Part shown: positions 1 to 63,985 of the stretch, piece by piece
Layout of the letters: every line of letters starts with the position of its first letter
Position numbering within the stretch: position 1 is the stretch's first letter
From: an uncultured Verrucomicrobiae bacterium
GTDB taxonomy: Bacteria; Verrucomicrobiota; Verrucomicrobiia; Chthoniobacterales; UBA10450
Assembly (NCBI GenBank): GCA_963726745.1
Contig: CAVSDR010000004.1
Span: forward strand, 32,001 to 96,000
Reading direction: 5' to 3'
Length of the DNA: 64,000 nucleotides
The notes under the pieces: model-generated
Databases searched by the model: none
What the model was told of the DNA's origin: nothing
The model's input: the letters and a program-made list of their open reading frames with translations, nothing else
Program-made: the position numbers and the translations under genes

Positions 1-1077
1 CTCGAGCGCGAGCTGCGCCGCGATCTCGCCGATGACCGAGGCAAACTTGAAGCCGTGCCCGGAGAAGCCGCCGCAAAGAATCACATCCGGATGTTCCGGG
101 TGGCGATCGACCACGAAATGCTCGTCGTCGGTTAACGAGTACATGCAAACCTTGGCCGCGAGCAGGCGTCCGGCCGCGCCCGGCATCCAGCTTTCCATCG
201 CGGCGACCAGCGGCGCGATGTCGCGCGCCTCGTCGATCTCGCGGTCGAGCTCCGGCGCGGAAGTGACCGTGCCGGCGCCGTGGAAGGCGGCCTTCACCCC
301 TTCGCCGAAATCGGGGAAGCCGTAGAGCGGCGCCGGGAAGTGGTCGCGCGTGACCAGGAACGAAGGAAAACCGGGAGCCGCGTAGCCTCCCTGCGTCGGC
401 TGGAACCACGCCTGCACCATGCGTTCCACCCGCAGCCGCACGCCGAGCGCGGCCAGCGTCTCGCGCACCCACGGCCCGAGCGCGAGCACCAGCCGGCGCG
501 CCGTGACCGTCTCGCCGTTAGCCAGCGAGATGGCGAAACCGACGCCGCGCGCTTCCCAGCGAGTGAGCGCGGTTGCAAAACGCAACTCCGCGCCCGCGCG
601 TCGCGCGACCCCGAGCTGCGCCGCGATCGCCCGCTCCGGTTGCAAGACGCCGCCATCCGTCTCCCAAAGCGCGACCTCTCCCGGCGCCAAGCGCAGGGTG
701 GGAAAGCGCTTCCGCAATTCCTCCCGGCCTAACGAGTCCACCGCCAGGCCGTGCTCCTGCGCTGCCCGCAGGGTGCCGCGAATGATCTCGCTCCCTTCCG
801 CGCCGATCGTGAGCAGCCCGGTGAGCCGGAGCAATTCCTCGCCACTCGCGTGCTCGAGCTCGCGCCAGAGCTCGTAGGCTCGCAAGACCAGCGGCACGTA
901 GGCGGCATCTTCGAAATACGCTTTCCGGATCATCCGGCTGCGTCCGCTGGAGGAGCCGAGCTCGTGACCTTCGGCGAATTGCTCCAGGCCGAGGACGCGC
1001 GCGCCCCGCCGGGCACACTGCGCGGCAATGGCACTCCCCATTCCGCCCAATCCGATCACGGCCACGTCAAATTCCAT
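1..1077 (-). CDS. solA: N-methyl-L-tryptophan oxidase / monomeric sarcosine oxidase (3' end runs off window)
   Basis: Manual translation, not in ORF track: MEFDVAVIGLGGMGSAIAAQCARRGARVLGLEQF..GSSSGRSRMIRKAYFED; C-terminal GFSGHGFKFASVIGE motif near base 1-70. Confidence 0.9.
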   Translation of the reverse strand, partial: MEFDVAVIGLGGMGSAIAAQCARRGARVLGLEQFAEGHELGSSSGRSRMIRKAYFEDAAYVPLVLRAYELWRELEHASGEELLRLTGLLTIGAEGSEIIRGTLRAAQEHGLAVDSLGREELRKRFPTLRLAPGEVALWETDGGVLQPERAIAAQLGVARRAGAELRFATALTRWEARGVGFAISLANGETVTARRLVLALGPWVRETLAALGVRLRVERMVQAWFQPTQGGYAAPGFPSFLVTRDHFPAPLYGFPDFGEGVKAAFHGAGTVTSAPELDREIDEARDIAPLVAAMESWMPGAAGRLLAAKVCMYSLTDDEHFVVDRHPEHPDVILCGGFSGHGFKFASVIGEIAAQLALE

Positions 1078-1089
1078 CGCTTGCAGAAC

Positions 1090-1939
1090 ATGACGCTTTC
1101 CGCAGAAAGACAAATTGGGCAAGCTCCCGCCGTGCAATCGCCTCCCGCACCCTGGCTCGTCTTCATCGGCCGCATCGGCTTTCTCGCGCAAGGCCTGGTC
1201 TACGTTTGCATGGGACTCTTCTCGGCCACGGCCGCGCTCGAAGGGGCCAGCCGCGCGACCGGCTCGCGCGATCTCCTGCAAACGATCGTGCGCCAGCCGT
1301 TCGGTCGCGTTCTCCTGCTTGTGCTCATCGGCGGGCTCTGCTGCTACGTCGTCTGGCGGGTTTTAGCCGCGCTCCTGGATGTCGCGAACGACGGCCGCGA
1401 TGCCAAGGGCCTGGCTCTGCGCGCGCGCTCCTTTGTTGTCGCGCTGATCTATGCCGGCCTCGCTTTTGCCGGCATTAAGACGCTCGTCGGCACGGGCGGG
1501 AAATCCGGCGGCGGCGACCAGGCGGCGCGCGACGTGGACCGCGACCGCGCTGGCCTCTCCGTTTGGGAAAACGCTGGTTGTTCTCATCGGCGCGGGCGTG
1601 GCCGTGGCTGGGATCGGGCAAGGTTATCGCGCTTTCCGGCAAAAATTTGCGGAGCAACTCGACCTCGGCGAGCTCGACAAGACCGCGCGCACCTGGGTGC
1701 TGCGGGTTTGTTCCTTCGGGCTGGCCGCGCGCGGCCTGGTCTTCCTGCTCGCTGGCGGATTTCTCGTGGCCGCCGGCTTGCATTCGAATCCCTCGAAAGC
1801 GCGTGGCCTGCCCGGCGCCTTGAGTTCGCTGCACGCGCAGCCGTTGGGCCGCTGGCTCTTCGCCTTCACCGCGGTGGGCCTGGCGGCATACGGCGTGTTT
1901 GCCTGCGTGAAAGCGCGCTACGGGAAAATCGCGCAATGA
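1090..1939 (+). CDS. DUF1206 family membrane protein, split by a +1 frameshift near 1534
   Basis: GRIGFLAQGLVY..QPFGRVLL repeat in first frame, continues as WTATALASPFGK..GLAARGLVF..QPLGRWL in ORF 1451..1939. Confidence 0.8.
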
Positions 1940-2601
1940 CCGCGCCGGCGCGCTTCCTCGACCTGAGCCACACGGTCGAACACGGGATGGTGACCTACCA
2001 AGGTCTGCCCGCGCCGGTGATTTGCGATTGGCTTAGCCGCGAAGCTTCGCGCAGCCGCTACGCGCCCGGGACCGAGTTCCAGATTGGCAAGATCGAGATG
2101 GTGGCGAACACCGGCACTTACATCGATAGCCCATTCCATCGTTATGCCGATGGGATCGATCTCGCGGAGCTGCCGCTCGAGTCGCTGGCTAATTTGCCCT
2201 GCCTGGTCGTGCGCGCGACGGAGCGCGAAAGCCGCGCGGTGAAAATGCTGCCTAACGAGTTGGATTGCCGCGGCGCTGCGGTCCTCTTCCACACCGGCTG
2301 GGCCAAACACTGGCGCACCGAGCGCTACTTCGCGGGGCATCCGCATTTGACCGCGGAATTAGCCGACGATCTGGTCGCGCGCGGCGCGGCGCTCGTGGGG
2401 ATCGATTCCTTTAACATCGACTCGACCGACGACGGCACGCGCCCGGTCCACTCCATCCTGCTCGCGGCCGGCATCCCGATCGTGGAGCACCTCCGCGGCC
2501 TGGAGCAACTACCCGATGCGGGCGCGCGGTTCTACGCGGTGCCGGTGAAGGTCAAAGGCATGGGCACTTTCCCGGTGCGCGCCTTTGCCCGGCTCGCTTG
2601 A
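1936..2601 (+). CDS. Cyclase family protein (kynurenine formamidase-like)
   Basis: DLSHTV, NTGTYIDSPFH, GIDSFNID, H..LL..GIPIVEHL motifs; ATGA overlap with upstream stop. Confidence 0.85.
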   Translation: MTAPARFLDLSHTVEHGMVTYQGLPAPVICDWLSREASRSRYAPGTEFQIGKIEMVANTGTYIDSPFHRYADGIDLAELPLESLANLPCLVVRATERESRAVKMLPNELDCRGAAVLFHTGWAKHWRTERYFAGHPHLTAELADDLVARGAALVGIDSFNIDSTDDGTRPVHSILLAAGIPIVEHLRGLEQLPDAGARFYAVPVKVKGMGTFPVRAFARLA

Positions 2602-2603
2602 AA

Positions 2604-2635: not shown

Positions 2636-2658
2636 CGCTGCAACCAACAACTTGTTGG

Positions 2659-3003: not shown

Positions 3004-3043
3004 TGGGGCTCGAAATAGCAGTTGATGTGCCGAAGGTAAAGCG

Positions 3044-4206: not shown

Positions 4207-4560
4207 ATGCGGGTTTTGATCGCAGAGGATAACCACGAGGTCGCCGGGGCGCTCTCGGAGCTGGTTGGCGCGGCGCAGCACGAAGTCGTGGAAATCGCCG
4301 CCTCCGGTCTCCGGGCAATGAGCGCCTACGAGCGGCTCCGGCCGGACGTAGTCATGATGGATTACATGATGTCCGGGCTGAACGGCGCCACTGCCTGCCG
4401 CAACATCATGGCGAAACATCCGGCCGCCCGCGTGGTCCTCGTGTCCGCCGCGCTCCAACCGCATGATCTCTCGCGGATGGACTGCGGCGCGCGCGCGATC
4501 CTGCGCAAGCCGGTCGACTTGCTCGAGGTGCAGCGCGTCCTCGCAGAAGTTGCTGCCTAA
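4207..4560 (+). CDS. Single-domain response regulator (receiver)
   Basis: VLIAED, PDVVMMD, VSA, ILRKP receiver motifs; GGAGG just upstream. Confidence 0.9.
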   Translation: MRVLIAEDNHEVAGALSELVGAAQHEVVEIAASGLRAMSAYERLRPDVVMMDYMMSGLNGATACRNIMAKHPAARVVLVSAALQPHDLSRMDCGARAILRKPVDLLEVQRVLAEVAA

Positions 4561-4573
4561 CGAACGCCGCCGC

Positions 4574-5010: not shown

Positions 5011-6372
5011 CTAGCTGATCCATTCACGGACGGTTTGCACCAGCAACCAGGCGTTCAGCGCGGCGATCACCAGGGCGATGATCCACGCCAGTCCCTTGAC
5101 GATCACGCCATTCGCAAACTCGCCCATCTTCAACTTGTCGTTAGTAAACATGACCAGCGGGAAAACTGCGAAGCTCAACTGCAAACTCAGGATCACCTGG
5201 CTCAGGACCAGCAGGTCGGTCGTGCCGCGCTCCCCGTAGATCGCGGTCACGATCACCGCCGGCACGATCGCAATCCCGCGCGTGATCAAGCGCCGCAGCC
5301 ACGGGCGCATGCGGATGTTAAGAAATCCTTCCATCACGATCTGGCCCGCGAGCGTCCCGGTGAGGGTGGAGTTTTGGCCGGAAGCGAGGAGAGCGAGCGC
5401 GAACAGGGTGCTCGCTCCGGTCACCCCAAGAAGTGGCGTGAGGAGTTGATAGGCTTCCTGGATTTCGGCGACGTCGTTCCGCCCGCGCGTGTAAAAAGTG
5501 GCCGCGGAGACGATCAAGATCGCGGCGTTGATGAAGAGCGCGAACATCAGCGCGAGCGTGGAATCGATCGTGGCGAATTTGATCGCCTCGCGTTTTCCCG
5601 GCGCGTTCAGCGCGTAGCGCCGCGTCTGCACGATCGAGGAATGCAGGTAGAGATTATGCGGCATGACGGTCGCGCCGAGGATGCCGATGGCGATGTAGAG
5701 CATCCCCGGATCGAGCACGATTTCCTTCGTGGGGATGAACCCCTTCGCAATCCCGAACAAGTCCGGCCGCGAGGCAATCAGCTCCCAGGCGAAGCAGCCG
5801 CCGATGACCGCGATGAGCGTGATGACCAGCGCCTCGATGTAGCGGAAGCCCTTATTCTGCAGGAACAGGACCACGAAGACATCGAGTGCGGTAATGCAGA
5901 CACCGTAGATCACGGGAATGCCAAAAAGGAGATAGAGCGCAATCGCCGAGCCGATGATTTCCGCGAGGTCGCAGGCCGCGATCGCGAGCTCGCAGATGAC
6001 CCAGAGGAAAAACGAAACCGGCCGGCTGTAGTGATCGCGGCAGGCCTGCGCGAGGTCGCGCCCGGTCACGATCCCGAGCTTGAGCGAAAGCGCCTGGAGC
6101 AGGATCGCCATCAGGTTGGAGATCATGATCACCGAGAGGAGCGCGTAGTTGTATTTCGAACCGCCCGCGAGATCGGTCGCCCAGTTGCCCGGGTCCATGT
6201 AACCGACCGCGACCAGGAAACCGGGCCCGGCAAAGGCCAGGAGCTTGCGGAAGAAGCTCGCGCCCGAGGGCACCAACATACTCCGGTGCACCTCGGAAAG
6301 GCTGGCCCGCACCGGCTGGGTGCGGAAACCCGCGGAGGTGTGAGCCTCCTCGGGCTCCTCGGAGTTAGACAT
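5011..6372 (-). CDS. mntH: Nramp-family Mn2+/Fe2+ transporter
   Basis: [34 protein letters not shown] signature motifs. Confidence 0.97.
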
Positions 6373-6914: not shown

Positions 6915-8303
6915 ATGCAACCGCTCGTGCTGGCGATCGATCTCGGAAGCTCCTCGGTGCGCACGGCGCTCTTCCGTGCGAACGGCGCGCGCCTCCTCCC
7001 GAGCAGCGCCAGCCGCTCCTACGCCATCCGCTATTCCGCCGATGGCGCGGCCGAGCTCGATCCCCTCATCCTCCTACGCGCCGCCCGCGCCTGCTTCCGC
7101 GAGACGGCGTCGAAAGCGCCGCCTAACGAGAGCATCGAGCTCATCTCCGGCTCCGGTTTTTGGCACAGCCTGCTCGGTTTGGACAAAGCCGGGCAGCCGC
7201 TCACTCCGGTCTACACCTGGGCCGATGCGCGCGCAGCGCCCGATGCCGCGCGGCTGCGCGAGGAATTCTCCGAACGAGAAATCCAGCAGCGCACCGGCTG
7301 CATGCTCCGCGCTCCTTTCTGGCCGGCGAAGCTCCGCTGGCTCCGCCGCACCGAGCCCGCGGTCTTTCGCCGCGTGGCTGTTTGGATTTCACCCGCGAGC
7401 TGGATTTTCCGGGAGCTCTTCGGCGTGCTCGCGACGAGCGCTTCCATGGCCAGCGGCACCGGTCTCTACCAGCTCGCGACCGGGCAGTGGGATGCCGACT
7501 TCTGCCACGCCTGCGACGTGGACCCGGTCCAGCTCGGACCGATCGCGGCGAGCTTCGATATCTTCAACGCCCGCGTCTTCACCACGATCGGCGACGGCGC
7601 CGCGAGCAATCTCGGCTCGGGCGCGAACGGCGCGGGCAGGCTGGCGATCAACGTCGGCACAAGCGCGGCCGCGCGCTTGATCCTGCCACGCTCCGCGCGC
7701 GTCCCGCGTGGCCTGTTCAAGTTCGTAGTCGATCAGCAGCGTGTGGTCGTCGGCGGCGCGATCAGCAACGCGGGGAATTTGCGGAAGTGGAGCCTGCGGG
7801 AGTTGCGGCTCGCGCAAGACCCGCCGCTCGACCGCGCGGCCGCGGCCCACGATGCGCTCACGGTTTTGCCGTTCTGGGTCGAGGAGCGCGCGCCCACCTG
7901 GCCGGGCGAAATGCGCGGCGCCCTCGTCGGCTTGACTGCGGTCACTTCCGCGACTGACATCCTCCGCGCGCTCACCACGAGCGTCTTTTACCGGCTGGGC
8001 GCGATCGTCGATGCGCTTGCGCGCAAGTTCGGCGAGCCAGGGGAAATCATCGTTTCGGGCGGCATCCTGCAATCACCCGAGGCGCTGGCAATTTTAGCCG
8101 ACACTTTGGGCCGCGACCTGCGCCGCTGCCGGGAAATGGAAAGCTCGCTCCGCGGCGCCGCCGTGCGCGCGCTGGAGCAATCCGGCGCCGCGGTGAAGGC
8201 GCTGCCCGCGGGTCGCCTGGTGAAACACCGGCCTTCTCTCAGCGAACGGCACCGTGCCCGCCGCGCGGAACAGGAAGCGCTCGAGCGGCGCCTCGCTCGT
8301 TAG
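6915..8303 (+). CDS. FGGY-family carbohydrate kinase (gluconokinase-like)
   Basis: [41 protein letters not shown] motifs. Confidence 0.85.
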
Positions 8304-9715
8304 GCCGCGGCGTCGCTTTGCGCTTTTTCCTGCGCCTGCGCTTCGCTGCTTAGCTTTTGAAAATGCAGTTCCTCGACCCGGCGGCCGTCGGTCTTGGTAA
8401 TCGTGACCAGGTAGTTTTCGATCCGCACCTGCTCGCCGTGCTTCGGCAGATGCCCCAGCAAATGCGTCACGTAACCGCCGATCGTGCTCACGTCCGAGCT
8501 CTCGAGCGTGAGGTCGGCCATATCCTGCAGTTCATACAGCCCGACCGCCCCTTCGAGGGTGAATTCGTTCTCGTTGATCGCGCGAAACTCCGCCTTCTCG
8601 GCATCGAACTCGTCCTGGATGTCGCCGACTAATTCCTCGAGCACGTTCTCCAGCGTGACCATGCCGACGGTGCCGCCGTATTCATCCACCACGACCGCGA
8701 GATGCGCGTGCTTCGTGAGGAAAAGATTGAGCAACTTCTCGAGCTGCATCATCTCCGGGACGTTCAAGACGTCGCGACGGATCGCCATCAAATCCGGCTG
8801 CGGGTGGCGCATCATCGGCACCAGCTCCTTGATGTGGATCAGGCCAATGGTGTTGTCGAGATGGCCGCGGCAAAGCGGGAAACGCGTGTGCCGCGACTCG
8901 AGCGCCTTGCGCACGTTATCCTCGAAGCTCTCCTCGAGATCGAGCGACACCACTTCGCCGCGCGGCGTCATGATATCGCGGACGACGCGACGGCGCATGT
9001 CGAGCGCGTTCACCAGAATGTCACGCCCGAGCGTGGAGACTTCCGCGGAGCCTTCGCTTTCCTCGAGGATCAAGCGCAGCTCTTCTTCGCTGTGCGCGAG
9101 CTCGCCCTCGGCCGCCGGTTCCAGGCGCAGGATCGAGCGCAGGACCCAATTAGACGACGCATTCAGAAACCAGATCGCCGGCCGGAAAATCGTGTAGAAG
9201 AACCGCAGCGGCGCACTCACCCAAAGAGTTGTCGGGAGCGGCTTGCGAATCGCGAGAATTTTCGGTGCCTGTTCGCCGATCACGATATGCAGGAAGGTGA
9301 TCAGCGAGAAAGCGATCGCGAACGAAACCGAGGTGATGATCGTGACCGAGGTAATGCCAACAAGAGCGAAGGCAGGCTGAAGGATCTGCGCCAGGAATGG
9401 CTCACCCAGCCAACCGAGCCCGAGGCTGGCGAGCGTGATCCCGAGCTGGCAGGCGGACAAATAGGCATCGAGATGGGAAGTGACGTGCTGCCCGGCGAGC
9501 GCGCGTTTGTTTCCCTCGGCTGCGAGCATCTCGAGCTGGCTCGTGCGGATCTTCACGAGCGCGAACTCCGAGGCCACGAAGAAGCCGTTCAGGAAAACCA
9601 ACAGCCCGATAATGCCCAGCTTCGCGAAAATGGCACCGGGCGATTCCCAGTGCTGCGCCAGCTCCGCGGCCGCGAGGGGCCACGAAGATTCAAAAACCAA
9701 AAATGAAATGCTCAT
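8300..9715 (-). CDS. Hemolysin/CNNM (CorC-like) family: DUF21 + CBS pair + CorC_HlyC
   Basis: [50 protein letters not shown]. Confidence 0.92.
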
Positions 9716-10079: not shown

Positions 10080-10163
10080 GGGCTTTTTCGGGCGAATCTC
10101 GTTAGGGCCGCAGGCCCGCGCGCACCGCATCCAACGCCCCCGCCGCGCGCGATGCAGTTCTAC

Positions 10164-10963: not shown

Positions 10964-13435
10964 TCACTCCTCGCGCAGCGCAACCATCGGATCCACCCGA
11001 GTCGCCCGCCGCGCTGGAAAAAAACAGGCGAGAAACGCGACTGCACTGAGCGCGACCATGGCCGTGGCGAGCGCGAGCAAATCGACGGCGCCCACGCCGT
11101 AGAGCACGCTCGCGAGCGCGCGACCGGTAGCCAAAGCGCCGGCTAAACCGAGCGCCAGGCCGATCGTGATGAGCACCGCGCCCTGGCCCAGGACCAGCCG
11201 GAAGACATCGCCGCGCGCGGCACCGAGCGCCAGGCGAATGCCGAGCTCGCGCGTCCGCTGGGTCACGCTCAAGGCCATCACGCCGTAGAGGCCTACGCTC
11301 GCGAGAAGCAGCGCCAGCCCGGCGAAGGATGCCAGCAGCGTCATCGTCAGGCGACGCGTCGCCAGGCTATTGGCGATGTTTTCCTCCATCGTGGCCACGT
11401 TCCCGATCGGCTGCTGCGGATCGAGCGCCTGCACTTCGCGCCGGATCGCCGGGAGCAGCGCGTGCGGATCGCCGCCCGCCACGCGCACCAGGAGGACGTT
11501 GCTCTCGTTAGGATTCTGCGAGGCCGGGAGATACAGGTGCACGAAATTCAACGCCTCCACGTTCTCTTCCCCGGGCGCTTCGTTCCGCGTTCGCGGGACC
11601 ACGCCCACGATGGTCAAGGGCGGCACGGTTTCCTCCGGATTCTGCGACGGTGGCCGCTGGTTGTCGTCCAGTTGCTGCCCGATCGGATCGCGCCCGGGGA
11701 AATAACGCTGCGCAAACGTCTCGTCGATGATCACCGTGCGCGGGCCGTCCGGCGTCTCTTCCGGGCCAAAGTTCCGGCCGCGCAGGATCGGCATCTTGAG
11801 CACGCGAAAATAATCCGGCGAGATGATGTTGATCTCGGCGGACGGTTCCTGGCCCGGCTCGGGCTTGGGCGTGCCGACGATGTGGAAATTGCTGTCCCAC
11901 TCGTTCTCGTCGAAGGGAATATTGACCCCAACCGCGGCCGCTTCCACGCCCGGCAAGGCGCGCACTCGCTCGAGCAACCGCTCGTAGAATTGCCGGATCT
12001 TGGCCTCGGAATCGAAGCGCGCCTGCGGGAGCGCGAGGGAAGTAGTCAGCACATTGTGCGGATCGAAATGGAGCGGCGCGCTTTGCGCACGCCAGAAGCT
12101 TTTCAAGGTGAGCCCAGCGCCGGCGAGGAGCACCACCGCGAGCGCCACCTGCGCGATCACGAGAAAAGAGCGCGCGCGTTGCCGGGCCGCGCCGCCACTG
12201 CCGCCGCGCGTCCCGGCTTCGTGGAGCACGATCGCGAGCGACGCCGTGCGCGAGATCCGCCACGCCGGCCAAATCCCCGCGAGCATGCCGGCCCCCAACG
12301 CCATCGCCGCAGTGAAAAGGAGCACGACGCCATCGATCTGCGTTTCCCGGAAACGAGGCACGCGTCCCGGGCTGAGCGCGATGATCCCGTCGAGCGACCA
12401 GATCGCAAGGAGCACGCCCGCGGCTCCGCCGAAGAGCGCCAGGAGCGTGCTCTCCGCGAGCAATTGCCGCGCGAGCCGCCAGCGACTCGCACCGAGGGCA
12501 GTGCGAATGGCGAGTTCCTTGGCCCGGGCGACCGCGCGGGCGAGCTGCAGATTGGCCACGTTTGCGCAAGCGATCAGAAGCACGCAGGCCACCGCGGCCT
12601 CGATCAAGCGCAGGCTTTTGCGGTATTCCCCCACCGAAGCCTGGAGCAAGGTCACCACGTCGATGCGCCGGCCGCTGTTGGTCTTTGGATATTGCCGTTC
12701 CAGCGCGACCGCGATCGTGTCCAAGTCCGCCCGGACCTGTGCCAGCGAGACTTCTGCGCGCACGCGCCCGAGGCCGCTGAAGCCCGGATGATTTCCCCGT
12801 TCGGCGACGGTCGGCTCCTTCCGGAGATCGCCCAAGGGCACGAAGACCTGCGCGAGACGCGGATATTTCACCGCCTGCGGAAGCACGCCCACGATCTCGC
12901 GCCCGACGCCGTCGACGATCACGACCTGGCCGAGCACTTTCGGTGAACCGCCGAAACGCGCGCGCCACAATTCTTCACCGAGCACGATCACCGGCGCTGC
13001 CCCGATGGTGTCGTCGGCCTCCGCGAGGTCGCGGCCGAGGACCGGCCGCACGCCGAGAATGCTGCCAAAATTTGCGGTCACGCGCGCGCCGTTGACGCGT
13101 TGCGGCCCGTTCGCGCCGCCGGGGAGCGAGAGATTAAACGGCTCGCGCCGGACGAGCGCGAGATCTGTCAGGGTGCGCTGGCCCGCGCGCCAGTCCATGT
13201 AATTCGGATAACTCACGGACCCGAACGGGAACGTCGCGGTCGTCTCGCGCAACACCACCAGACGATCCGCGTCGGGGTAAGGGAGCGGCCGCAGGAGAAC
13301 CGCGTGGATCACGCTGAAGATGGCGGTATTGGCGCCAATCCCGAGGGCCAGGGCAAAAATCGCGATCAAGGTAAAGGCCGGCGATTTAGCCAGCATTCTC
13401 AGGGCGTAACGGAAGTCAGTAAGGATGGAGTTCAT
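10964..13435 (-). CDS. ADOP-type duplicated MacB/FtsX ABC permease (copy 6 of operon)
   Basis: [54 protein letters not shown]. Confidence 0.93.
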   Translation of the reverse strand: MNSILTDFRYALRMLAKSPAFTLIAIFALALGIGANTAIFSVIHAVLLRPLPYPDADRLVVLRETTATFPFGSVSYPNYMDWRAGQRTLTDLALVRREPFNLSLPGGANGPQRVNGARVTANFGSILGVRPVLGRDLAEADDTIGAAPVIVLGEELWRARFGGSPKVLGQVVIVDGVGREIVGVLPQAVKYPRLAQVFVPLGDLRKEPTVAERGNHPGFSGLGRVRAEVSLAQVRADLDTIAVALERQYPKTNSGRRIDVVTLLQASVGEYRKSLRLIEAAVACVLLIACANVANLQLARAVARAKELAIRTALGASRWRLARQLLAESTLLALFGGAAGVLLAIWSLDGIIALSPGRVPRFRETQIDGVVLLFTAAMALGAGMLAGIWPAWRISRTASLAIVLHEAGTRGGSGGAARQRARSFLVIAQVALAVVLLAGAGLTLKSFWRAQSAPLHFDPHNVLTTSLALPQARFDSEAKIRQFYERLLERVRALPGVEAAAVGVNIPFDENEWDSNFHIVGTPKPEPGQEPSAEINIISPDYFRVLKMPILRGRNFGPEETPDGPRTVIIDETFAQRYFPGRDPIGQQLDDNQRPPSQNPEETVPPLTIVGVVPRTRNEAPGEENVEALNFVHLYLPASQNPNESNVLLVRVAGGDPHALLPAIRREVQALDPQQPIGNVATMEENIANSLATRRLTMTLLASFAGLALLLASVGLYGVMALSVTQRTRELGIRLALGAARGDVFRLVLGQGAVLITIGLALGLAGALATGRALASVLYGVGAVDLLALATAMVALSAVAFLACFFPARRATRVDPMVALREE

Positions 13436-29389: not shown

Positions 29390-29471
29390 GCGGGAACGAG
29401 CACACCAGCTTCGCCGCTCGTTAGCCAGCCGCATTTTGCTTCGGGCGCTTCTTTGCTACCTTCCTCGCGGA

Positions 29472-46258: not shown

Positions 46259-46266
46259 CTCGCTGC

Positions 46267-51983: not shown

Positions 51984-53292
51984 TCAACCTGCCGGGCGGC
52001 GTTCAAGATTCGGCAGAAACGCCGTCAGCAGCCCGATCAGTGGCAGATAAGAACAGACATGGAAGACGTAGGGAATCCCGCGGTGATCCGCCAGCACCCC
52101 GAGCACGGCTGAGCCGATTCCGCCCATGCCGAAGGCGAGGCCAAAGAAGAGCCCGCTCATCAGGCCGACTTTTCCGGGAACCAGTTCCTGCGCAAAGACC
52201 AGGATGGCCGAGAAAGCAGACGACAAGATCACGCCGATGATCGCGCTGAGCACAGCCGCACCAGAACAGATTCGCGTAGGGCAAGGCGAGCGCGAATGGA
52301 GTCACGCCCAGGATAGACGCCCAGATGACCGCCTTTCGCCCGATGCGGTCGCCGATCGGGCCGCCGAGGAAAGTGCCCGCGGCGATCGCGGCCAGGAAGA
52401 TGAAGAGATGAAGCTGCGCACTCTTTACCGAGAGGCCAAACTTCTCCATCAGGAAGAAGGTGTAATAGCTCCCCATGCTCGCGAGGTAGAAATACTTCGA
52501 GAAGACCAGGACCACGAGAACGCCTAACGAGAAGAAAACCCGCCGGCGCGCGAGCGGCGTCGCCCGGAGCAAGTGGCTGCCTAATTTCCGGCCCTCGCGC
52601 CGGCTCTCGTCCAGCCGCCGGCGATACCAGCGCCCGACGCCCGAGAGCACGAGGATGCCCGTGAGCGCAAGGAGGGTGAACCAGATGATCGCCCCCTGCC
52701 CGCGGCTGACGACGATGAGCGCCGCGAGCAGCGGCCCGAGCGAGCTCCCGGCATTCCCGCCTACCTGGAAAAGCGATTGCGCAAAGCCGTGCTGCCCGCC
52801 GGAGCTCAAGTGCGCCACGCGCGACGCTTCCGGATGAAAGACCGACGAGCCGATCCCGACCAGCCCAACCGCGAGCAGGACCAGCGTCAAAGTGCTGCCT
52901 AACGAGAGCAAAACCAGCCCCACGAGGGTGAAGGTCATCCCGATGGCGAGCGAGTAAGGCTGCGGGTGTTTGTCGGTGAAGAGGCCGACGAACGGCTGCA
53001 AGAGCGAGGCCGTGAGCTGATTCGTTAGCGTAATCAGCCCAATGTGGCGGAAGTCGAGATTGAGCTCCGTCTTGAGGATTGGGTAGATCGCCGGGATCAG
53101 CGATTGCAGGGTGTCGTTCAGCAGGTGCGCGAAGCTGAGCGCGCCCAGCACCCCGAGGACAGGCGCGGCGGCTTTCGGCAAGGCGATGTGATCCTCGGCG
53201 CAAACTGGCGGGCCGCTCGGCGGCGCTTCGACTTCCCCTGGCACGCCCCGACCTTCCACCGCCCGCGCGCGCTCGTCGCGTGGATTCTCCAC
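51984..53292 (-). CDS. fsr: Fsr-type MFS efflux transporter, +1 frameshift near 52255
   Basis: HLLNDTLQSL, SSVFHPEASR, AQSLFQVGGN, GGPIGDRIGRK; tail SAFSAILVFAQELVPG in ORF 51984..52253. Confidence 0.88.
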
Positions 53293-53330: not shown

Positions 53331-55277
53331 ATGCGAGACGACAAGATCGAGGCGGCCTTGGCGGCCGGAAAATTACTGCCGGCGGCCGCGGAAAACCTGC
53401 GCGGGTTGCTCGCGGGCGCCCCGGATGATTTCTACGCGCGCGTGATCGGCGAGCTGGCGGATGGCGGGCATTGGAGCGAGCTAAACGACCGCTTTTACAA
53501 GAAGCTCGCCTTCGGGACCGGTGGTCTGCGCGGCCGGACCGTGGGCAAAGTCGTCACCGCCGTCGAGCGCGGCTCTGCGGCCCACGATGCACCGCCGGAG
53601 TTCCCCTGCGTGGGCACGAATGCGATGAACTTCTACAACGTGGCCCGCGCCACCCGCGGCCTGGTGGCTTACCTGCACGATTGGTTTGCGCAGGAAAAAC
53701 TCCCGGGCCGCCCGAAGCTGGTGATCGCGCACGACACGCGCTTTTTCTCGCGGGAGTTCACCGCGCTGGCGGCGAAAGTCGCGGCGGAGAATGGCGCCGA
53801 CGCTTTCATCTTCGACGGCCCGCGCTCGACCCCGGAGCTGTCGTTTGCCGTGCGCCATCTCCACGCGAGCGCCGGCATCGTGATCACCGCGAGCCACAAC
53901 CCGCCGCATGACAATGGCTACAAGGTTTACTTCGCCGACGGCGCGCAAGTGGTCGAGCCGCACGCCGGCGGAATCATCGCAAAAGTGAACCAGCCGTCAG
54001 CCGCGGAGTCGCCGCACGGCCACGGCGCGGTCACGACTTTAGGCAGCGAGATCGACGCAGCCTACATGCGGCGGTTGGAGACGTTGGTGCTCGATCCGGA
54101 GCTGGTCCGCGGCGCGAAAGACTTGCGGATCGTCTTCACCCCGATCCACGGGACCGGCGGCGTGATCATCAAGCCGATGCTCCAGCGGCTCGGCTTTCAG
54201 TTTGCAGTCGTTAGGCAGCAAGATGAGTTCGACGGCGCTTTCCCGACGGTGGCTTCGCCGAACCCGGAAAACGCCGAGGCGCTGAAGCTGGGCGTGGAGC
54301 AGGCGCAAGCCGACGGCGCCGACCTGGTGGTCGCGACCGACCCGGATTGCGACCGCATGGGCGTGGCCGTGCGCACCGCCGCCGGCGAGATGAAATTGCT
54401 CACCGGCAACCAGATCGGCTCGCTCATGGCCTACTACCGCGCGAAGACGCTTTTCGAGCAGGGCGTGCTCACGAAGGAAAACGCGAAGCGCGGAGTGATC
54501 ATCAAGACGTTCGTCACCACCGATCTGCAAAAAGCGATCGCCGAACACTACGGCCTGCGCTGCGTCGAGACGCTGACCGGCTTCAAGTATATCGGCGCGA
54601 AGCTCGGGAAATACGAGGCCGCGCTCCCGGCGGCGACGCGCGCAGAATACCGCTCGCTCTCGGAGGAAGAGACGCGGGCGCGCCGGCTGGCGGACTCCTC
54701 GCTTTACATCTTTGGCGGCGAGGAAAGCTACGGCTACAGCGGCGCGGATTTCGTGCGCGACAAGGATGGCAACGGCGCCACGATCATGTTTTGCGAAGTT
54801 GCGGCTTACGCGAAATCGAAGGGCCTAACGCTCGATGCCTTGCTTGATGAAGTTTTCGCGACCTTTGGATTCTTCGCGGAAAAAAACGGCGCCATGACCT
54901 TCGAAGGCGCGGAAGGCGCGGGGAAGATCAAGGCGCTGCTCGAGTCCTACGTGAGCGCGCCGCCGCCGGAGATGCTCGGGTCGGCGGTGGCCGCGGTGAA
55001 GAACTTCGAGCAGGAGACTTATCGCGACGTCGAGGGCGACGTGATCCCGAAGGAAAAGATGCTCATCTTCGAACTAGCCGACCAGACGCGCGTGGCCGTG
55101 CGCGGTTCCGGCACCGAACCGAAGATCAAGTATTACCTCTTCGCGCAGCGCCGGCCGGAAGACGGAGCGCGCTTGAGCGAGGAAGAACTCGCAAACGCGA
55201 AACACGACGTCACCGCACGCCTCGAGCAGCTTTGGTCGTGGCTGCAGGACGATGCCGCCGCGCGGATCGGCTCGTAG
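53331..55277 (+). CDS. pgm: Phosphoglucomutase/phosphomannomutase family
   Basis: FGTGGLRG, TASHNP, DPDCDR, GGEESYG, RGSGTEPKIK. Confidence 0.93.
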   Translation: MRDDKIEAALAAGKLLPAAAENLRGLLAGAPDDFYARVIGELADGGHWSELNDRFYKKLAFGTGGLRGRTVGKVVTAVERGSAAHDAPPEFPCVGTNAMNFYNVARATRGLVAYLHDWFAQEKLPGRPKLVIAHDTRFFSREFTALAAKVAAENGADAFIFDGPRSTPELSFAVRHLHASAGIVITASHNPPHDNGYKVYFADGAQVVEPHAGGIIAKVNQPSAAESPHGHGAVTTLGSEIDAAYMRRLETLVLDPELVRGAKDLRIVFTPIHGTGGVIIKPMLQRLGFQFAVVRQQDEFDGAFPTVASPNPENAEALKLGVEQAQADGADLVVATDPDCDRMGVAVRTAAGEMKLLTGNQIGSLMAYYRAKTLFEQGVLTKENAKRGVIIKTFVTTDLQKAIAEHYGLRCVETLTGFKYIGAKLGKYEAALPAATRAEYRSLSEEETRARRLADSSLYIFGGEESYGYSGADFVRDKDGNGATIMFCEVAAYAKSKGLTLDALLDEVFATFGFFAEKNGAMTFEGAEGAGKIKALLESYVSAPPPEMLGSAVAAVKNFEQETYRDVEGDVIPKEKMLIFELADQTRVAVRGSGTEPKIKYYLFAQRRPEDGARLSEEELANAKHDVTARLEQLWSWLQDDAAARIGS

Positions 55278-58283: not shown

Positions 58284-60482
58284 ATGAAAGCCTTCCTCGC
58301 CCTGATGCAGAACGATCTGCGCCTCGCGTTGCGCAATCGTGCGGTCGTCTTCTTCAATTACTTCTTTCCGCTAACCTTCTTTTTCATCTTCGCGCTCCTG
58401 CTCCAGGCCAACCAAGGCTCGGCGATCAATCGCGTGATCACGATCGCCCTCGGCTTTGGCATTCTCGGGAATGGCCTTTTTGGCGCCGGGATGCGCGCGG
58501 TCATGGATCGCGAGGCCAATGTCCTCCGGCGTTACAAGGTCACGCCGATCACCCCGGTCCCGCTGCTCGTGGCCTCGATGATCGTGGGCGCGCTGCTCTT
58601 CCTACCCACGGTGATCGTCACGCTGTTCCTGGCCCATCAGTTCTACGGGATGGAAGTGCCGCCTAATCTTGTCTCCTTCTTCCTTTTCGTCATCGTGGCC
58701 GCGATCGCCTTCCGCGCGCTGGGGTTGATCATCGCCGCGGTGGTCAATTCCTCCCAGGAAAGCAACCTCCTGATCCAGCCGATCTACATGGTCATGCTTT
58801 TCCTCAGCGGCATGACCATCCCGATCAGCATGTTCCCGGATTGGCTCCAGCGCGTGACCCAATTTGTCCCCGCGACTTACCTCATGAGCGGGATGGCCGG
58901 GATCATCCAGCGGCACGAAACGCTCCTGCAAAACTGGGCCGCAACCGCCGCGCTCCTCGTGACCGCGGTCATCGCTACTTTCATCGCGACGAAACTTTTC
59001 CGCTGGGAAAAGGGCGAGAAGCTCCGGCCCGCAGCCAAGCTCTGGGTGCTGGTCTCGCTGGTGCCGTTTCTTCTCCTCGGCGCCTACCAGTCATGGAGCA
59101 GCGAGAACCTCACCAAAACGAAAATCCTCGCGCGCGAAGTTCAGCGCGGCCGCTCCTGGCTCCTGCAGAACGGGCGCATTTTCGTGGGCGACGGCCGGGT
59201 GATCGAGTCCGGCTCCGTCCTGATCCGCCGCGGCAAGATCGCGCGGATTTTTGAAGGCCCGGCGCCGGAGGCGAAGGCGCTCAATGCCGAGCCGATCGAG
59301 GCCGCCGGCAAGACGATCCTGCCCGGCCTGATCGATGTGCATGTGCACCTTGGCGCGCCGGGCGGCTTCGTCGAGGACTGGTCAAAACACGACTCGAAGA
59401 AGGCGATCGAGCGTGAACTCGCTGCCTATCTTTTCTCCGGCGTGACCGCGGTGCGCAGCGCAGGCGACGCCACCGACACGTTGCTCGATGTGCGCACGCA
59501 TTTCGCCACCGGCGAGAAGCTGGGGACCGAGCTCTTCCTTTGCGGTCCGCTCTTCACCGCCAAGGACGGTCACGGGACGGAATACGGGAAGTTCATCCCG
59601 GAGAACTTCCGCGAAGGCTTCAACGCGCAATTCGTCCGCACGCCGCAAAGCGCGGCGGAAGCGCGCACGCAAGTCGACCAGCTCGCGCAGCAGGGCGTCG
59701 ATGCGATCAAGGGCGTCCTCGAGACTGGCTCGGCCTCGTATTCCTTCGTGCGCATGGACCTCACGATCCTGCGCGCCGTGGCCGACGCCGCGCACGCGCA
59801 CAATCTCCCCGTCTCCATCCACACCGGCGACGCCCAGGACGTGGCCGACGCCGTCGCCTTGGGCGCAAACTCGATCGAGCACGGCTCTTTCCGCGACGAA
59901 ATAGCCGACAACATCCTCGCCCAGATGAAGGAGAACGGCATCATGCTCGACCCGACGCTCTCGGTCGCGGAGGGGATGAAAGACTTCGCTGCGGGCAAGA
60001 CCGACCTGCTCAAGCGCTCGTTAGTCCAGCAGGTCACGCCGAAGGATTTGCTTGCCAGCACCGAGCGCGCGACGAGCGACCCCAAGACCGCCGAGATGCG
60101 CGAAAACCTCGCGAAGTATCCGATCTCGCTCGAGCAAGGCGCGCGCAACCTCGTCCGCGCGTGGCAGGCCGGGGTCACACTCGTGACCGGCTCGGACGCG
60201 GGGAACTCCTTCGTCTTCCACGGCCCGACGGTGCAGCGGGAGATCGAGCTCTGGGTGGCCGCCGGCATCCCGCCCGCGGTCGCGCTCCAGGCAGCCACCG
60301 CCAATGCCGCGCGCTTGCTGCGCGCCGAGGACCGCTTCGGCACCGTCGCGGAAGGGAAGGAAGCCAGCTTGCTGATGGTCGATGGCAACCCGCTCGAAGA
60401 CGTGCGTGCGCTCTCGGCCATTTCCACCGTTTTCTTCAAGGGCGAACGCGTCGGGCGCACCGAACTCTTGGAAGAAAAGTAA
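58284..60482 (+). CDS. ABC-2 permease fused to an amidohydrolase domain
   Basis: N-terminal ~270 aa ABC-2 TM domain; then PGLIDVHVH, AIKG, IHTG, IEHG, GSDAG. Confidence 0.85.
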   Translation: MKAFLALMQNDLRLALRNRAVVFFNYFFPLTFFFIFALLLQANQGSAINRVITIALGFGILGNGLFGAGMRAVMDREANVLRRYKVTPITPVPLLVASMIVGALLFLPTVIVTLFLAHQFYGMEVPPNLVSFFLFVIVAAIAFRALGLIIAAVVNSSQESNLLIQPIYMVMLFLSGMTIPISMFPDWLQRVTQFVPATYLMSGMAGIIQRHETLLQNWAATAALLVTAVIATFIATKLFRWEKGEKLRPAAKLWVLVSLVPFLLLGAYQSWSSENLTKTKILAREVQRGRSWLLQNGRIFVGDGRVIESGSVLIRRGKIARIFEGPAPEAKALNAEPIEAAGKTILPGLIDVHVHLGAPGGFVEDWSKHDSKKAIERELAAYLFSGVTAVRSAGDATDTLLDVRTHFATGEKLGTELFLCGPLFTAKDGHGTEYGKFIPENFREGFNAQFVRTPQSAAEARTQVDQLAQQGVDAIKGVLETGSASYSFVRMDLTILRAVADAAHAHNLPVSIHTGDAQDVADAVALGANSIEHGSFRDEIADNILAQMKENGIMLDPTLSVAEGMKDFAAGKTDLLKRSLVQQVTPKDLLASTERATSDPKTAEMRENLAKYPISLEQGARNLVRAWQAGVTLVTGSDAGNSFVFHGPTVQREIELWVAAGIPPAVALQAATANAARLLRAEDRFGTVAEGKEASLLMVDGNPLEDVRALSAISTVFFKGERVGRTELLEEK

Positions 60483-61626: not shown

Positions 61627-61644
61627 GACGCGGCCGGTCGCGCG

Positions 61645-62367
61645 TCAGCGCAGCGTCTGTCGAAAATAGCCAGCAACTTCTTCCCGCACCCGAGCCTGCG
61701 CCGCCGCGGAAAAGCCGTGGCCTTCGCCGGGCACGAAATGCGTCGTGACCGTGGGCGCGTGCCGGCGCAAATACCGCTGCAGCGGCAAGGCGTATTTCTC
61801 GAATGGCACGCGACCATCCGCCATCCCGTGGATCATCAACCCTGGCGGCATGCTTCCGAGGCGTTTGGTCTCGTTATTCCACACCCCGCCGGCCTGCTCC
61901 GCGATCGCGCCCACGCGCGGATTTTCCGACGCAGCCGCCACGGCGAGAAACGCGCCTAACGAGTAACCATAGAGGCCGATGCGGGCGTGGTTCCCCTGCT
62001 CCTGCGCGATCCAGCGCAGGGAGTCGCGCACCGTCTCCAACCAGGTGTCGAAATTCTTCAAGAGACCGCGGTCGCCGAGGAAAAAGTGCGAGCCGGTGCG
62101 ATCGAAATAGTGCAGGAGGTAGACCGCGTTTCCCTCGGCCGCGAGCCGAAGCGCCATCCGCCGCATCTCCGGACCGTCGAAGAGCGTGCCGCCAGCGCCA
62201 TGCAGCACCAGGATCGTCCGGTGCGTCGCCGGTACGGCGGCGGGCGCAAAGTAGTCGGCCGTGATCGTGCGCCCGCCACTGACGAAGGATCGCGTCTCGG
62301 AAGCGCGGAGTGCGCCCGGAGCGAGGAGCGTAAGAATGATCAGCCAGGCCGGGCGCAGGAAAGTCAT
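61645..62367 (-). CDS. Dienelactone hydrolase-like alpha/beta hydrolase, secreted
   Basis: LHGAGG, GYSLG, HGMAD, GEGHGF. Confidence 0.85.
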   Translation of the reverse strand: MTFLRPAWLIILTLLAPGALRASETRSFVSGGRTITADYFAPAAVPATHRTILVLHGAGGTLFDGPEMRRMALRLAAEGNAVYLLHYFDRTGSHFFLGDRGLLKNFDTWLETVRDSLRWIAQEQGNHARIGLYGYSLGAFLAVAAASENPRVGAIAEQAGGVWNNETKRLGSMPPGLMIHGMADGRVPFEKYALPLQRYLRRHAPTVTTHFVPGEGHGFSAAAQARVREEVAGYFRQTLR

Positions 62368-62408
62368 GTCGGAGAGCGCTTCGCACCGGCCGCCCTGCGG
62401 GACGCGCT

Positions 62409-63329
62409 TTACTCGTCGGGATGAAGCTCGAATTGGCTCATCGCGCGGAACATTTGGTAGCGCTGCTTGATCTCGTCCTGCTGGAGCGTGCGCAGCCGGT
62501 CCATGCTGAAGGCCTCGACGTTGAAGCTCGCAAGCACGCTCCCGTAGATGAGCGCGCGGCGGAATTGCGCGAAGCTTAATTCGCCACCGGAAGCCGCGAG
62601 ATAGCCGGCGACGCCGCCGGCGAAAGTGTCGCCTGCGCCCGTAGGATCGTGGATGTCTTCCAGCGGATAGGCCCCGCAGCTGAAGAAATCGTCCTCGCTG
62701 AAAAGAAGCGCGCCATGTTCGCCTTTTTTGATCGCGACATATTTCGGCCCGGCTTTGAGAATGGCACGGCCGGCTTTGATCAGGCTCGTCTCCTTGGTCA
62801 TCTCGCGCGCTTCGCTGTCGTTCAGGATGAGCATGTCCACTCGCGGGAGGAGCGCATCGAGATCCGCGCGCGCAATGTTGATCCAAAGATCCATCGTGTC
62901 GGCCACGATGAAGCGCGGCTTCTCCATTTGATCGAGCACGTGGGACTGGAGCGCGGGCGCAATATTAGCCAGCAAGACGAAGTCGGTCTTCTTGTAGGCC
63001 GCCGGCAGATCGGGGCGGAAATGTTCGAAAACGTTCAGGTCGACCGAGCGGGTCTCGCGCGTGTTCATGTCCCAGGCGTATTCGCCCGACCAGCGGAAGG
63101 TTTTTCCCTCGGCGCGCTGCACCCCCGCGGTGTCGATCTTGCGTTCCTTCCAAAAGTTGAACTCGCTCTCCGGAAAATCACTTCCGACCACGCCGACGAG
63201 ATTCACTGGCGAAAAGAAGCTCGCCCCGAGGGCCGCGTAAGAAGCGGAGCCGCCGAGTTGGTCGGCATGTTCCTCCACGGGAGTTTTGACGGTGTCGAGC
63301 GCGATGGAACCAACGATGAGGACGGACAT
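62409..63329 (-). CDS. PfkB family sugar/nucleoside kinase
   Basis: VGSIALD, LGGSASY, DPTGAGDTFAGG. Confidence 0.92.
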   Translation of the reverse strand: MSVLIVGSIALDTVKTPVEEHADQLGGSASYAALGASFFSPVNLVGVVGSDFPESEFNFWKERKIDTAGVQRAEGKTFRWSGEYAWDMNTRETRSVDLNVFEHFRPDLPAAYKKTDFVLLANIAPALQSHVLDQMEKPRFIVADTMDLWINIARADLDALLPRVDMLILNDSEAREMTKETSLIKAGRAILKAGPKYVAIKKGEHGALLFSEDDFFSCGAYPLEDIHDPTGAGDTFAGGVAGYLAASGGELSFAQFRRALIYGSVLASFNVEAFSMDRLRTLQQDEIKQRYQMFRAMSQFELHPDE

Positions 63330-63330
63330 G

Positions 63331-63985
63331 CTATTGGGAATTTTCGGTTTGGGATTTTGGAATCGAGGAGCGCCCGGGCAGCGCGGGCATACTCTGCAAT
63401 GTCCGCGGCTTGCAGCAAGCCGGAGACAATGACCACGCGTTGCGCGCCCGCGGCCAGGACTTGCGGGAGATTCTCCAGCTTGATCCCGCCGATGCAGAAA
63501 ATCGGCAGACGCACGAGCTCGTGGACAGGGGTGATTTGTTCGAGCCCGATCGGCTCGTAGTCCGGTTTCGTCGGCGTGGCGAAGAGCGGACCGAAGCCGA
63601 TGTAATCCGCGCCTTCCTCCATCGCCTGGTGCGCCTGCGCCAGGCTGTGGGTGGAGCGGCCAACCAGACAAGCCGCACCCGCACGCCGGCGCGCTTCCGC
63701 GATCGAGAGATCGTCCTGCCCCACGTGCACGCCCTCGGCCCCGATCTCGCCGGCTATTTCCGGGTGATCGTTGATGATCAAGGGCACGCCGGCGTCGCGG
63801 GTGAGCTTGATTAATTCCGCAGCCTGCCGGCTAATTCCCGCCGCGCTCAGCTTCTTCGCGCGCAATTGGACCAGGTCGACGCCCCCGCGGAGCATCTCGC
63901 GCAGGACGTTCGACGTCTCGTTAGGCGAGACGTAGCCGAGATCGAGAATCCCGTAGAGCCGGGCCTCGCGCAGGCGCGCGCTCAC
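63331..63985 (-). CDS. thiE: Thiamine-phosphate synthase; true stop probably TAG at 63333-63331 after a +1 frameshift
   Basis: VQLRAK, IINDH, GVHVGQDD, GRSTH, GPLFATPTKP, IGGI. Confidence 0.92.

Follow-up and report, generated by a model that had tools for sequence, protein, structure and literature searches.

To our knowledge, only the Neisseriaceae and the Pasteurellaceae are firmly established as having sequence-specific self-tags for DNA exchange, with the highly iterated palindrome HIP1 of cyanobacteria as a recent candidate, and we know of no uptake sequence from the phylum Verrucomicrobiota. The receptor of the DNA uptake sequence (DUS) of the Neisseriaceae is the minor pilin ComP. For the uptake signal sequence (USS) of the Pasteurellaceae, a minor pilin receptor is predicted in the accessible text of one study (PMC12616744), and HIP1 (GCGATCGC) is now linked to transformation in the accessible text of another (PMC13756078). 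Here, we describe a hyper-abundant word, GCCTAACGA(G), detected in a 64,000-nucleotide stretch of an uncultured Verrucomicrobiae bacterium of the order Chthoniobacterales (lineage UBA10450; assembly GCA_963726745.1, hereafter G000). This stretch, positions 32,001 to 96,000 of contig CAVSDR010000004.1 (G000:C4:32001-96000), is called the window, and the word was considered as the full 10-mer GCCTAACGAG, as 9-mers, as the 8-mer GCCTAACG and as the core CTAACGA.

Like DUS and USS, the word is a non-palindromic 9- to 10-mer that uses both strands equally and reaches copy numbers from hundreds to thousands. It is likewise written into genes at the expense of codon and even amino acid choice, shared by related genomes with differing strength and flanks (dialects), scarce in presumed foreign DNA, and accompanied by competence genes. 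As with HIP1, it is hyper-abundant, evolutionarily conserved and regularly spaced, in a family with a conserved orphan methyltransferase; unlike HIP1, which is palindromic and has known methylases, it is asymmetric (not its own reverse complement) and no methylase is tied to it. The word shares with Chi and the FtsK orienting polar sequences (KOPS) its shortness, asymmetry and chromosome-wide occurrence at kilobase spacing, although co-orientation with replication, judged by skew on contigs, is absent. It differs from repetitive extragenic palindromic and miniature inverted-repeat elements, as nothing is conserved beyond 10 nt and most copies lie wholly inside called genes. Finally, its core letters are identical to those of the integron sites attC (R'' RYYYAAC/R' GTTRRRY), attI and attG, but the copies lack a second arm, a hairpin or a nearby integrase and are found inside ordinary genes.

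A search of full-text literature, covering main texts, found no account of a genome-wide word in these phyla. The 10-mer, searched on either strand, occurred only in unrelated contexts as judged by titles, and the term "uptake sequence" together with Verrucomicrobia only in unrelated work. The 7-mers are common in the literature; among the matches listed is work on the DtxR iron box, in whose accessible text they form part of a palindrome.

Abundance, anatomy and occurrence of the word

The initial annotation of the window had counted 23 copies of the 10-mer, 26 of a 9-mer (CCTAACGAG, or CTCGTTAGG on the opposite strand) and 47 cores (29 on the plus and 18 on the minus strand), and all three counts were reproduced exactly. 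The 23 exact 10-mers (18 plus, 5 minus) compare with 0.14 on average, and never more than 2, in 100 dinucleotide-preserving shuffles, and the 47 cores with 2.8 expected and a shuffle maximum of 7. The 18:5 strand bias goes with local gene orientation. Across the whole assembly (3.41 Mb, 7 contigs, 63.6% G+C), GCCTAACGAG is the top-ranked 10-mer by count, with 820 copies (445 plus, 375 minus) distributed over all seven contigs and thus not confined to that of the window. The 9-mer GCCTAACGA has 1312 copies (rank 2 among 9-mers) and the core 2025, and the word ranks first by z-score at each length from 7 to 10. A third-order Markov model predicts 6.1 copies of the 10-mer, or 2.5 if the word is masked before training, corresponding to an excess of about 130-fold. 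Genes were called with a home-made caller based on open reading frames (ORFs) and codon scores, giving 2455 genes over about 80% of the genome with some genes missed, and all frame and "intergenic" tallies carry the gaps of these calls. The called genes contain 585 10-mers (216 + 369), against 8.5 (5.0 + 3.5) in 30 synonymous-codon shuffles preserving each protein, i.e. about 70-fold, and against 1.8 + 1.5 in codon-order shuffles. The enrichment thus held under the amino-acid-preserving null suggested with the initial annotation and under the third-order Markov model, and the hyper-abundance of the word in this genome is real and strong.

The logo of the genome-wide sites reads G(87%) C(75%) CTAACGA G(64%), with a strict core CTAAC-(G>A)-A, preceded by favoured G and C and followed by any letter except T. 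Positions 1, 2 and 10 tolerate change, and one-letter variants at positions 3 to 7 reach 0 to 2.3 times the masked Markov estimate, i.e. are not enriched. The sole change tolerated in the core is G8>A, with 93 copies, against none for C7>T. Outside the 10 nt, flanks are unique, with only codon periodicity conserved and no longer repeat around the word.

Two of the six reading frames through the word are closed by TAA or TAG, and the remaining four, all stop-free, are all in use: antisense x-S-L-G (318 10-mers), sense P-N-E (115), sense L-T-S (97) and antisense L-V-R (51). These 581 copies (369 of them antisense) lie wholly within called genes, while 59 of the 820 straddle a gene end and 180 fall outside the calls. 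Among the 702 S-L-G tripeptides of the called proteins, 406 (58%) are spelled TCGTTAGGC, against 3.9 predicted from codon usage. The use of four frames, in both orientations, together with this codon choice agrees with the earlier proposal that the signal acts on DNA rather than on protein. In addition, S-L-G and P-N-E are over-represented 1.6- and 2.4-fold relative to amino acid composition; therefore, the word has altered proteins as well as codons.

The word also provides the stop codon of 250 of the 2455 called genes (154 as C-TAA-CGA and 96 as TCGT-TAG), and core density is about tenfold background in the final 25 nt of genes and about fourfold in the first 25 nt past the stop. We read this enrichment as cheap placement. 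The supply of stops to 10% of genes distinguishes the word from DUS and USS, as does the lack of inverted, terminator-like word pairs, none of which was found in G000, where the orientations of adjacent sites are random. Stop usage among the gene calls is TAG 876, TGA 817 and TAA 761, which is unusually rich in TAA and TAG for a genome of 64% G+C. The word was rejected as its cause, since the word-poor relatives G002 and G003 are equally rich in these codons.

Along the chromosome, the copies show no replichore polarity, which goes beyond the weaker polarity than that of Chi or KOPS remarked on in the initial annotation. On contig C6 (1.03 Mb), GC skew is negative in 20 of 21 bins, yet 127 plus and 124 minus copies are present; on contig C2, where the skew changes sign near 300 kb, 9-mers are even on both sides (55 plus and 59 minus before, 23 and 21 after). 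Neighbouring cores avoid each other at short range: below 100 bp, the hazard for the next core is 0.2 per kb, and it climbs until it levels off at about 0.75 per kb from 400 bp on, and only 44 pairs are less than 100 bp apart (24 + 20, in the same and opposite orientation) against 116 expected. One copy per fragment, or one every few hundred base pairs, appears sufficient. Core density rises steadily with G+C content: windows below 59% have 0.8 cores per 10 kb and those at 65-67% have 7.7, despite the word itself being AT-richer than the genome. Long word-free gaps are low in G+C and contain O-antigen and polysaccharide, exosortase, giant-surface-protein and similar flexible-genome genes; from this composition and gene content we infer that such islands are probably acquired foreign DNA.

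Each of the 34 genomes in the genus of G000 is enriched for the 9-mer, with densities of 43 to 709 copies per Mb, where a reversed-word control gives about 16 to 20 (G001, G008 and G042 are unpublished and counted only as rows of this table). Ten genomes are word-rich, with at least 385 per Mb (G000, G001, G010, G013, G024, G042, G044, G047, G048 and G049), and four are word-poor, with 43 to 54 (G002, G003, G005 and G012). Densities differ up to tenfold between close relatives, and the nearest relatives of G000 by gene identity are middling or poor in the word; therefore, density changes quickly. A shift of dialect in the word-poor kin was rejected, since this 9-mer also heads the enrichment ranking of 9-mers in G002 and G003 (21 and 27 copies in 400-kb samples, against about 1 expected), which indicates lower intensity and not another word.

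The word is enriched in most of the family: 35 of 121 genomes from 34 genera (including the unpublished G451 and G455) have the word at 10 times the control or more and 16 fall below twice the control, by hand division of counts, the extremes being less than 1 and 56 times and the highest count 4336 (in 3.2 Mb). Outside the family, 16 genomes from 15 families of the order each contain between 0 and 14 10-mers. When 401 genomes were sampled evenly across the phylum, strong enrichment of GCCTAACG was confined to two members of the family, G000 and G344; nearly everywhere else the 8-mer is about tenfold rarer than the control. Within the phylum, the suggested lineage specificity is upheld. Outside the phylum, five Gemmatimonadaceae genomes carry 3479 to 7821 copies of GCCTAACG against 210 to 424 of the control, and the logo of two of them (157 kb) shows GCCTAACG with the same preference for G and C before CTAAC and no A behind. 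Therefore, the two phyla use dialects of one word, a sharing that needs either transfer of a reader or convergence on the integron core described below.

When the whole collection was scanned for three consecutive words, 80 loci were listed, among which single-hit loci comprised 14 in nine Gemmatimonadaceae records and eight from Chthoniobacterales or Verrucomicrobiae. Word-rich genomes are marked only by such single-hit loci; loci with multiple hits were rejected as markers, being clustered regularly interspaced short palindromic repeat (CRISPR) arrays, tandem repeats or attC arrays. Among these, a CRISPR repeat family of about 36 nt containing GCCTAACG was observed in a Haliangium metagenome-assembled genome (MAG), in cyanobacteria and in an unclassified MAG (L145, L151 and L137; arrays of 20 to 44 repeats), and an Acidobacteriota MAG (L127) has an array of 270-bp cassettes with GCCTAACGGC...GTTAGGC attC sites.

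The upkeep of individual sites was followed in orthologues from 400-kb samples, with 7-mers as the control. In G048, which is distant (68% nucleotide identity) and word-rich, 34 of 75 G000 sites are retained, compared with 12% of control 7-mers; at places with conserved amino acids, retention is 31 of 37 (84%) against 26%. In the word-poor G002 and G003, retention (13/101 and 7/65) equals that of the control (14-15%), and decayed sites mostly differ by 2 to 4 letters. The few sites that these two genomes possess often coincide with those of G000 (13 of 23 and 7 of 12). In the tricorn-protease gene, compared in 23 genomes, all three G000 sites are at codons that bear the word in other genomes too. 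Its L-T-S site is found in 11 of the 23, with the rare codons CTA ACG AGT between freely variable flanking codons, and its S-L-G site is common to seven word-rich genomes, the others having S/T-L-P or x-L-A at those codons. As for recent recombination imports around G000 sites, sliding-window identity along this gene revealed no tract resembling any word-rich genome (about 0.65 to 0.91 throughout), the species being too diverged for such a test. From the retention data, the sites are either old or recurrently re-created at the same permissive places, and they are under active upkeep in word-rich lineages, weakened in word-poor ones.

The word at integron recombination sites

The word had been reported as an unrecognised one, which is not supported: besides being hyper-abundant as an 8-mer in Gemmatimonadaceae, it includes the classical integron core GTTAGGC/GCCTAAC and is identical to the 8 to 10 conserved crossover letters of attC and attI in the integrons of this lineage. 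In G028, from another family of the order, all 13 aligned attC sites start with GCCTAACG, nine of them with the full 10-mer, and end with GGTTAGGC. The word occurs there in cassettes and not in the rest of the genome, which has 14 copies of the 10-mer in all. With a covariance model trained on these 13 sites, 36 attC sites were detected next to intI genes in the genus of G000, and 30 of the 33 distinct ones have CTAACGAG at the R'' end, preceded by the two letters AT (12), AC (9), GC (4) or GT (4). For attI, 12 of 17 regions upstream of genus intI genes have GTTAG 108 to 241 nt from the gene start, and nine of these 12 putative sites read CTCG|TTAG, the reverse complement of CTAACGAG. Therefore, the strict part of the genome-wide word is the lineage's conserved crossover region. 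As the integrons are related, the match must be counted as one or a few independent coincidences and not as thirty, although a match of eight letters would still be unlikely to arise by chance. This identity between a genome-wide word and the integron crossover in this lineage is new here. Regarding the structure of the G028 integrons, the cassette arrays are homogeneous, with attC sites of about 103 nt (L285-L287: C7:92500-97500, C21:52500-56421 and C13:1-3000), and L287:1445 presents an attI junction with flanking direct repeats.

The word copies themselves are not attC sites. The covariance model finds none in the window (best E 0.54), where the copies have no second arm or hairpin, and close inverted word pairs are rare in G000. 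An inverted-repeat scan by eye beside one intI gene of G048 revealed no attC array, and the covariance model did find sites there. In G000, about 16 attC sites cluster at C6:736.3-744.9 kb (736330-744900), the first of them truncated, with no integrase gene in the assembly, and this cassette array contains only 15 of the 2025 cores. A solitary attC was also observed at C4:150942.

The integrase or the integron as driver of word density was rejected, because density does not correlate with IntI or attC content. IntI is above the cut-off in 15 of the 34 genus genomes, including the word-poor G005 and G002 (the gene being split in G002), and below it in the word-rich G000, G024, G001, G010 and G042; a tblastn search of G000 with IntI of the genus returned only Xer-like paralogues. 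Similarly, with 118 candidates scored per genome, at least 21 to 25 attC sites were counted in the word-poor G002, G003 and G005, at least 17 in G000 and at least 91 in G048. In the five Gemmatimonadaceae genomes, the attC model had no match among the 150 of about 6000 candidates scored per genome. In the accessible text of one study, chromosomal integrons are described as recruiting cassettes from DNA acquired by natural transformation (PMC12614218).

Candidate readers and competing explanations

The word must be recognised by a protein that reads double-stranded DNA, in either orientation and chromosome-wide. Among genes of the competence type, G000 encodes ComEC, DprA, ten PilB/PilT-type (T2SSE) ATPases, three secretins, a PilC-like platform protein and a pilin, together with a weak ComEA-like HhH match (29 bits). 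We rejected the idea that the word decayed because ComEC or DprA was lost, as both are present in the word-poor G002, G003 and G012, with ComEC apparently split in G005.

Two methyltransferases were considered. A beta-class N4/N6 methyltransferase (C3:981068-982039), flanked by DUF1353 and HD-domain genes and with no restriction partner, is a signature gene of the family, found in 116 of the 121 family genomes, against nine of the 401 in the phylum sample, three of these nine belonging to the family. Its closest solved relatives are orphan-type methyltransferases and CcrM, and it is also present in the word-poor G096, G455, G483, G471 and G002. As an enzyme linked to the word, it may be taken as a lead, no more. 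A C5 cytosine methylase of 540 aa (C5:210977-215104; L263) was rejected as reader, since only three of the 34 genus genomes have it, the orthologues beyond G000 being those of G013 and, split, of G046. Its gene is directly downstream of that of S-adenosylhomocysteine hydrolase, which is in two ORFs in this assembly. Elsewhere (C4:371200-372600), a type I HsdM is disrupted, with its N-terminal and catalytic pieces in separate frames, followed downstream by a truncated fragment of a DarT-like single-stranded-DNA ADP-ribosyltransferase.

G000 also has a second hyper-abundant word genome-wide, an 18-bp degenerate motif S-A-W-N-K-Y-G-Y-Y-G-G-C-T-A-A-W-T-T (e.g. C2:23546 and C3:131522). Its anchor GGCTAAW has 1235 copies and GCTGGCTAA 459 to 479 against 11 to 16 expected. 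Its sites are split evenly between the strands and fall both in spacers and in several reading frames, and it has the CTAA centre in common with the main word. Hybrid sites of the two words exist, 98 of which read GYYGKCTAACGA, nearly all of them as GYYGGCTAACGA. Enrichment of GYYGGCTAAW is limited to G000, G011 and G015, and in most other genomes of the genus it falls short of the control.

Of the three functions suggested with the initial annotation (uptake signal, nucleoid site or modification motif), uptake-type self-recognition would fit these sequence patterns best. By analogy with DUS, USS and HIP1, the word could be a self-tag that is read when DNA is acquired and that gene cassettes also carry, a reading that we hold tentatively, with a confidence somewhat short of even. 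It is placed in this class because of its family-wide inheritance with strengthening and decay, its scarcity in presumably acquired DNA, its footprint on the proteome and the permissive presence of competence genes. A candidate sequence-specific reader would keep the word across this family of soil Chthoniobacterales, word-bearing DNA from the own kind being favoured on acquisition, either at uptake or in the processing of incoming DNA. Recombination would then push the word into tolerant places, i.e. permissive codon triplets, stop codons and spacers, so that its accumulation would be a case of molecular drive, and each gene cassette would carry one copy of the tag through the crossover core of its attC. 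A more specific form, in which the signal is tuned to the integron crossover core, is possible but doubtful: cells would take up or spare DNA with cassette ends, harvest cassettes and tag their own chromosomes, and both soil phyla would have reached the same 8-mer by aiming at the universal cassette end.

Several observations weigh against a self-tag. The bacteria concerned are uncultured, and the pilin-like genes present are not linked to the word. Competence genes are widespread in bacteria and therefore only permissive, and ComEC and DprA are intact in the word-poor G002, G003 and G012. If uptake words were arbitrary, one would not expect an unrelated phylum to share the 8-mer, nor does a second, unrelated-looking abundant word in the same genome follow from a single uptake specificity. 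The enrichment at the stops of 250 of 2455 genes is accounted for only as cheap placement. The identity with the integrase's own site, a feature foreign to DUS and USS, makes the integrase an obvious alternative reader.

The copies would then be secondary docking sites (attI-like or "attG") for IntI, multiplied by selection or by integrase activity. In its favour, the word is the integrase's own site, with the letters of attC and attI in the genus and of attC in G028; integrases also insert cassettes at double-stranded genomic attG sites, according to the accessible part of a preprint (bioRxiv 10.1101/2022.09.11.507474), and in the 96 genes ending in TCGT-TAG a cassette inserted at the word would come to lie after a restored TAG and be co-transcribed. 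We nevertheless consider it unlikely, as density is independent of IntI and attC content, G000 has no IntI by tblastn, and G028 has integrons with the 10-mer but only 14 copies in its genome. Moreover, the genome-wide copies prefer GC before CTAAC, whereas AT or AC is usual in attC sites; no integrase reaction is known to leave a solitary core behind; most copies are inside genes, where insertion would be harmful; and the cassette array has very few of the cores. Methylation, which overlaps with the self-tag reading, does not appear a likely basis either: an orphan methyltransferase would mark the word, as in a HIP1-like system, and methyl-dependent uptake, repair or restriction avoidance would favour it. 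The near-universal, partnerless N4/N6 enzyme of the family speaks for it, the excess of G8>A over C7>T is what strand-specific deamination of a methylated C on the bottom strand would produce, and the patchy second word resembles methylome turnover. The same enzyme is nevertheless encoded by word-poor genomes, its four homologues outside the family (55-59% identical) are in genomes without the word, the C5 methylase is patchy, and repair of the very-short-patch type fixes one letter and cannot build a 9-mer.

Orientation-free, genome-wide copies spaced at least about 400 bp apart, retained at silent sites, and accompanied in G000 by a second motif that also resembles a protein site could be expected of an abundant nucleoid-associated or chromosome-organising protein, whose site the integron would have borrowed, e.g. 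as that of an accessory factor. Such a protein is quite unlikely to be the explanation: no nucleoid protein is known to require exact 9-mers by the thousand, no gene emerged as a candidate, neither the scarcity in islands nor the sharing with cassette ends is predicted, and word-poor sister species seem able to do without the word. A signal of the Chi type that stops or activates a helicase-nuclease at DNA ends, copied by cassettes as mimicry of a self-marker, would account for the scarcity in presumed foreign DNA and for one word per 1.7 to 4 kb, close to the density of Chi in Escherichia coli. It is very improbable, because the copies lack the strand bias relative to replication that characterises every known Chi, and the 130-fold excess is far beyond Chi-type enrichment. 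The notion that the word has no reader, being a by-product of mutation or repair bias or a remnant of dispersed mobile elements, has nothing in its favour beyond abundance itself. It is largely refuted and barely credible, in view of the unique flanks without a longer repeat, the unenriched one-letter variants, the absence of attC matches in the window, the conservation at silent sites and the tenfold differences between relatives.

A tag comparable to DUS would thus run through a family of abundant uncultured soil Verrucomicrobia and, as a shorter dialect, through Gemmatimonadaceae, and its letters are those cut by the integron integrase. If it governs DNA acquisition, it would provide a mechanistic link between natural transformation and cassette capture in soil, the main cassette reservoir, and would explain the strong conservation of cassette ends. 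In practice, the word could help to separate native from acquired DNA in these genomes, it skews their codon, stop-codon and even protein statistics, and it offers a defined bait for its reader.

Word copies and genes of the window

The full 10-mer has 18 exact copies on the plus strand of the window. The first are at 727..736 (antisense D-S-L-G in a called gene), 2250..2259 (outside the gene calls) and 7121..7130 (sense P-N-E in an FGGY kinase gene), followed by 13552..13561 and 13852..13861 (antisense S-L-G) and 14901..14910 (antisense L-V-R), all three in the same MacB/FtsX permease gene. Further copies are located at 19363..19372, 19756..19765 (antisense L-V-R), 30797..30806 (about 40 nt past the stop of the gene called at 29226-30758), 35306..35315, 41678..41687 (antisense S-L-G in a PfkB kinase gene), 46265..46274, 46597..46606 and 47152..47161. 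The copy at 49385..49394 is the S-L-G site of the tricorn-protease gene mentioned above (antisense S-S-L-G; same codons in 7 of 23 genomes), 52522..52531 and 52897..52906 are antisense S-L-G sites of one MFS transporter gene, and the last is at 61954..61963. The five minus-strand copies are at 8296..8305, straddling the ends of two convergent genes, at 33570..33579, 34060..34069 and 37439..37448, encoding S-L-G in MMPL transporter, LolA-like and amidohydrolase genes, respectively, and at 63917..63926.

Three further cores belong to the 9-mer CCTAACGAG, at 10099..10105 and 11505..11511 on the minus strand and 21819..21825 on the plus strand. The remaining exact matches are to the core only: on the plus strand at 4557..4563, 15086..15092, 15339..15345, 15680..15686, 20966..20972, 33100..33106, 36618..36624, 42852..42858, 44804..44810 and 50509..50515, the last in the tricorn-protease gene, and on the minus strand at 5138..5144, 29418..29424, 31726..31732, 32887..32893, 34397..34403, 39623..39629, 44772..44778, 51766..51772 (the L-T-S site of the tricorn-protease gene, common to 11 of 23 genomes), 53022..53028, 54208..54214 and 60018..60024.

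For the 26 9-mers, the reported dominance of the frame TCG-TTA-GG stood, and the exact tally did not. The initial annotation had assigned 16 copies to S-L-G, two to L-V-R, four to P-N-E, one to L-T-S, two to Arg-stop and one to intergenic DNA, whereas S-L-G 11, L-V-R 3, P-N-E 2, straddling 1 and "intergenic" 9 were obtained here; this check is partial, several of our "intergenic" copies being in uncalled genes. The word-bearing genes of the window are ordinary ones, encoding MacB/FtsX permeases, Nramp, LptF/G, an MMPL transporter, the tricorn protease, phosphoglucomutase, Lnt and kinases. Between positions 10967 and 26504, six MacB/FtsX-type permease paralogues, one of them truncated, are arranged in tandem with a retropepsin-like aspartyl protease gene in between, and relatives also have many paralogous copies of these permeases.

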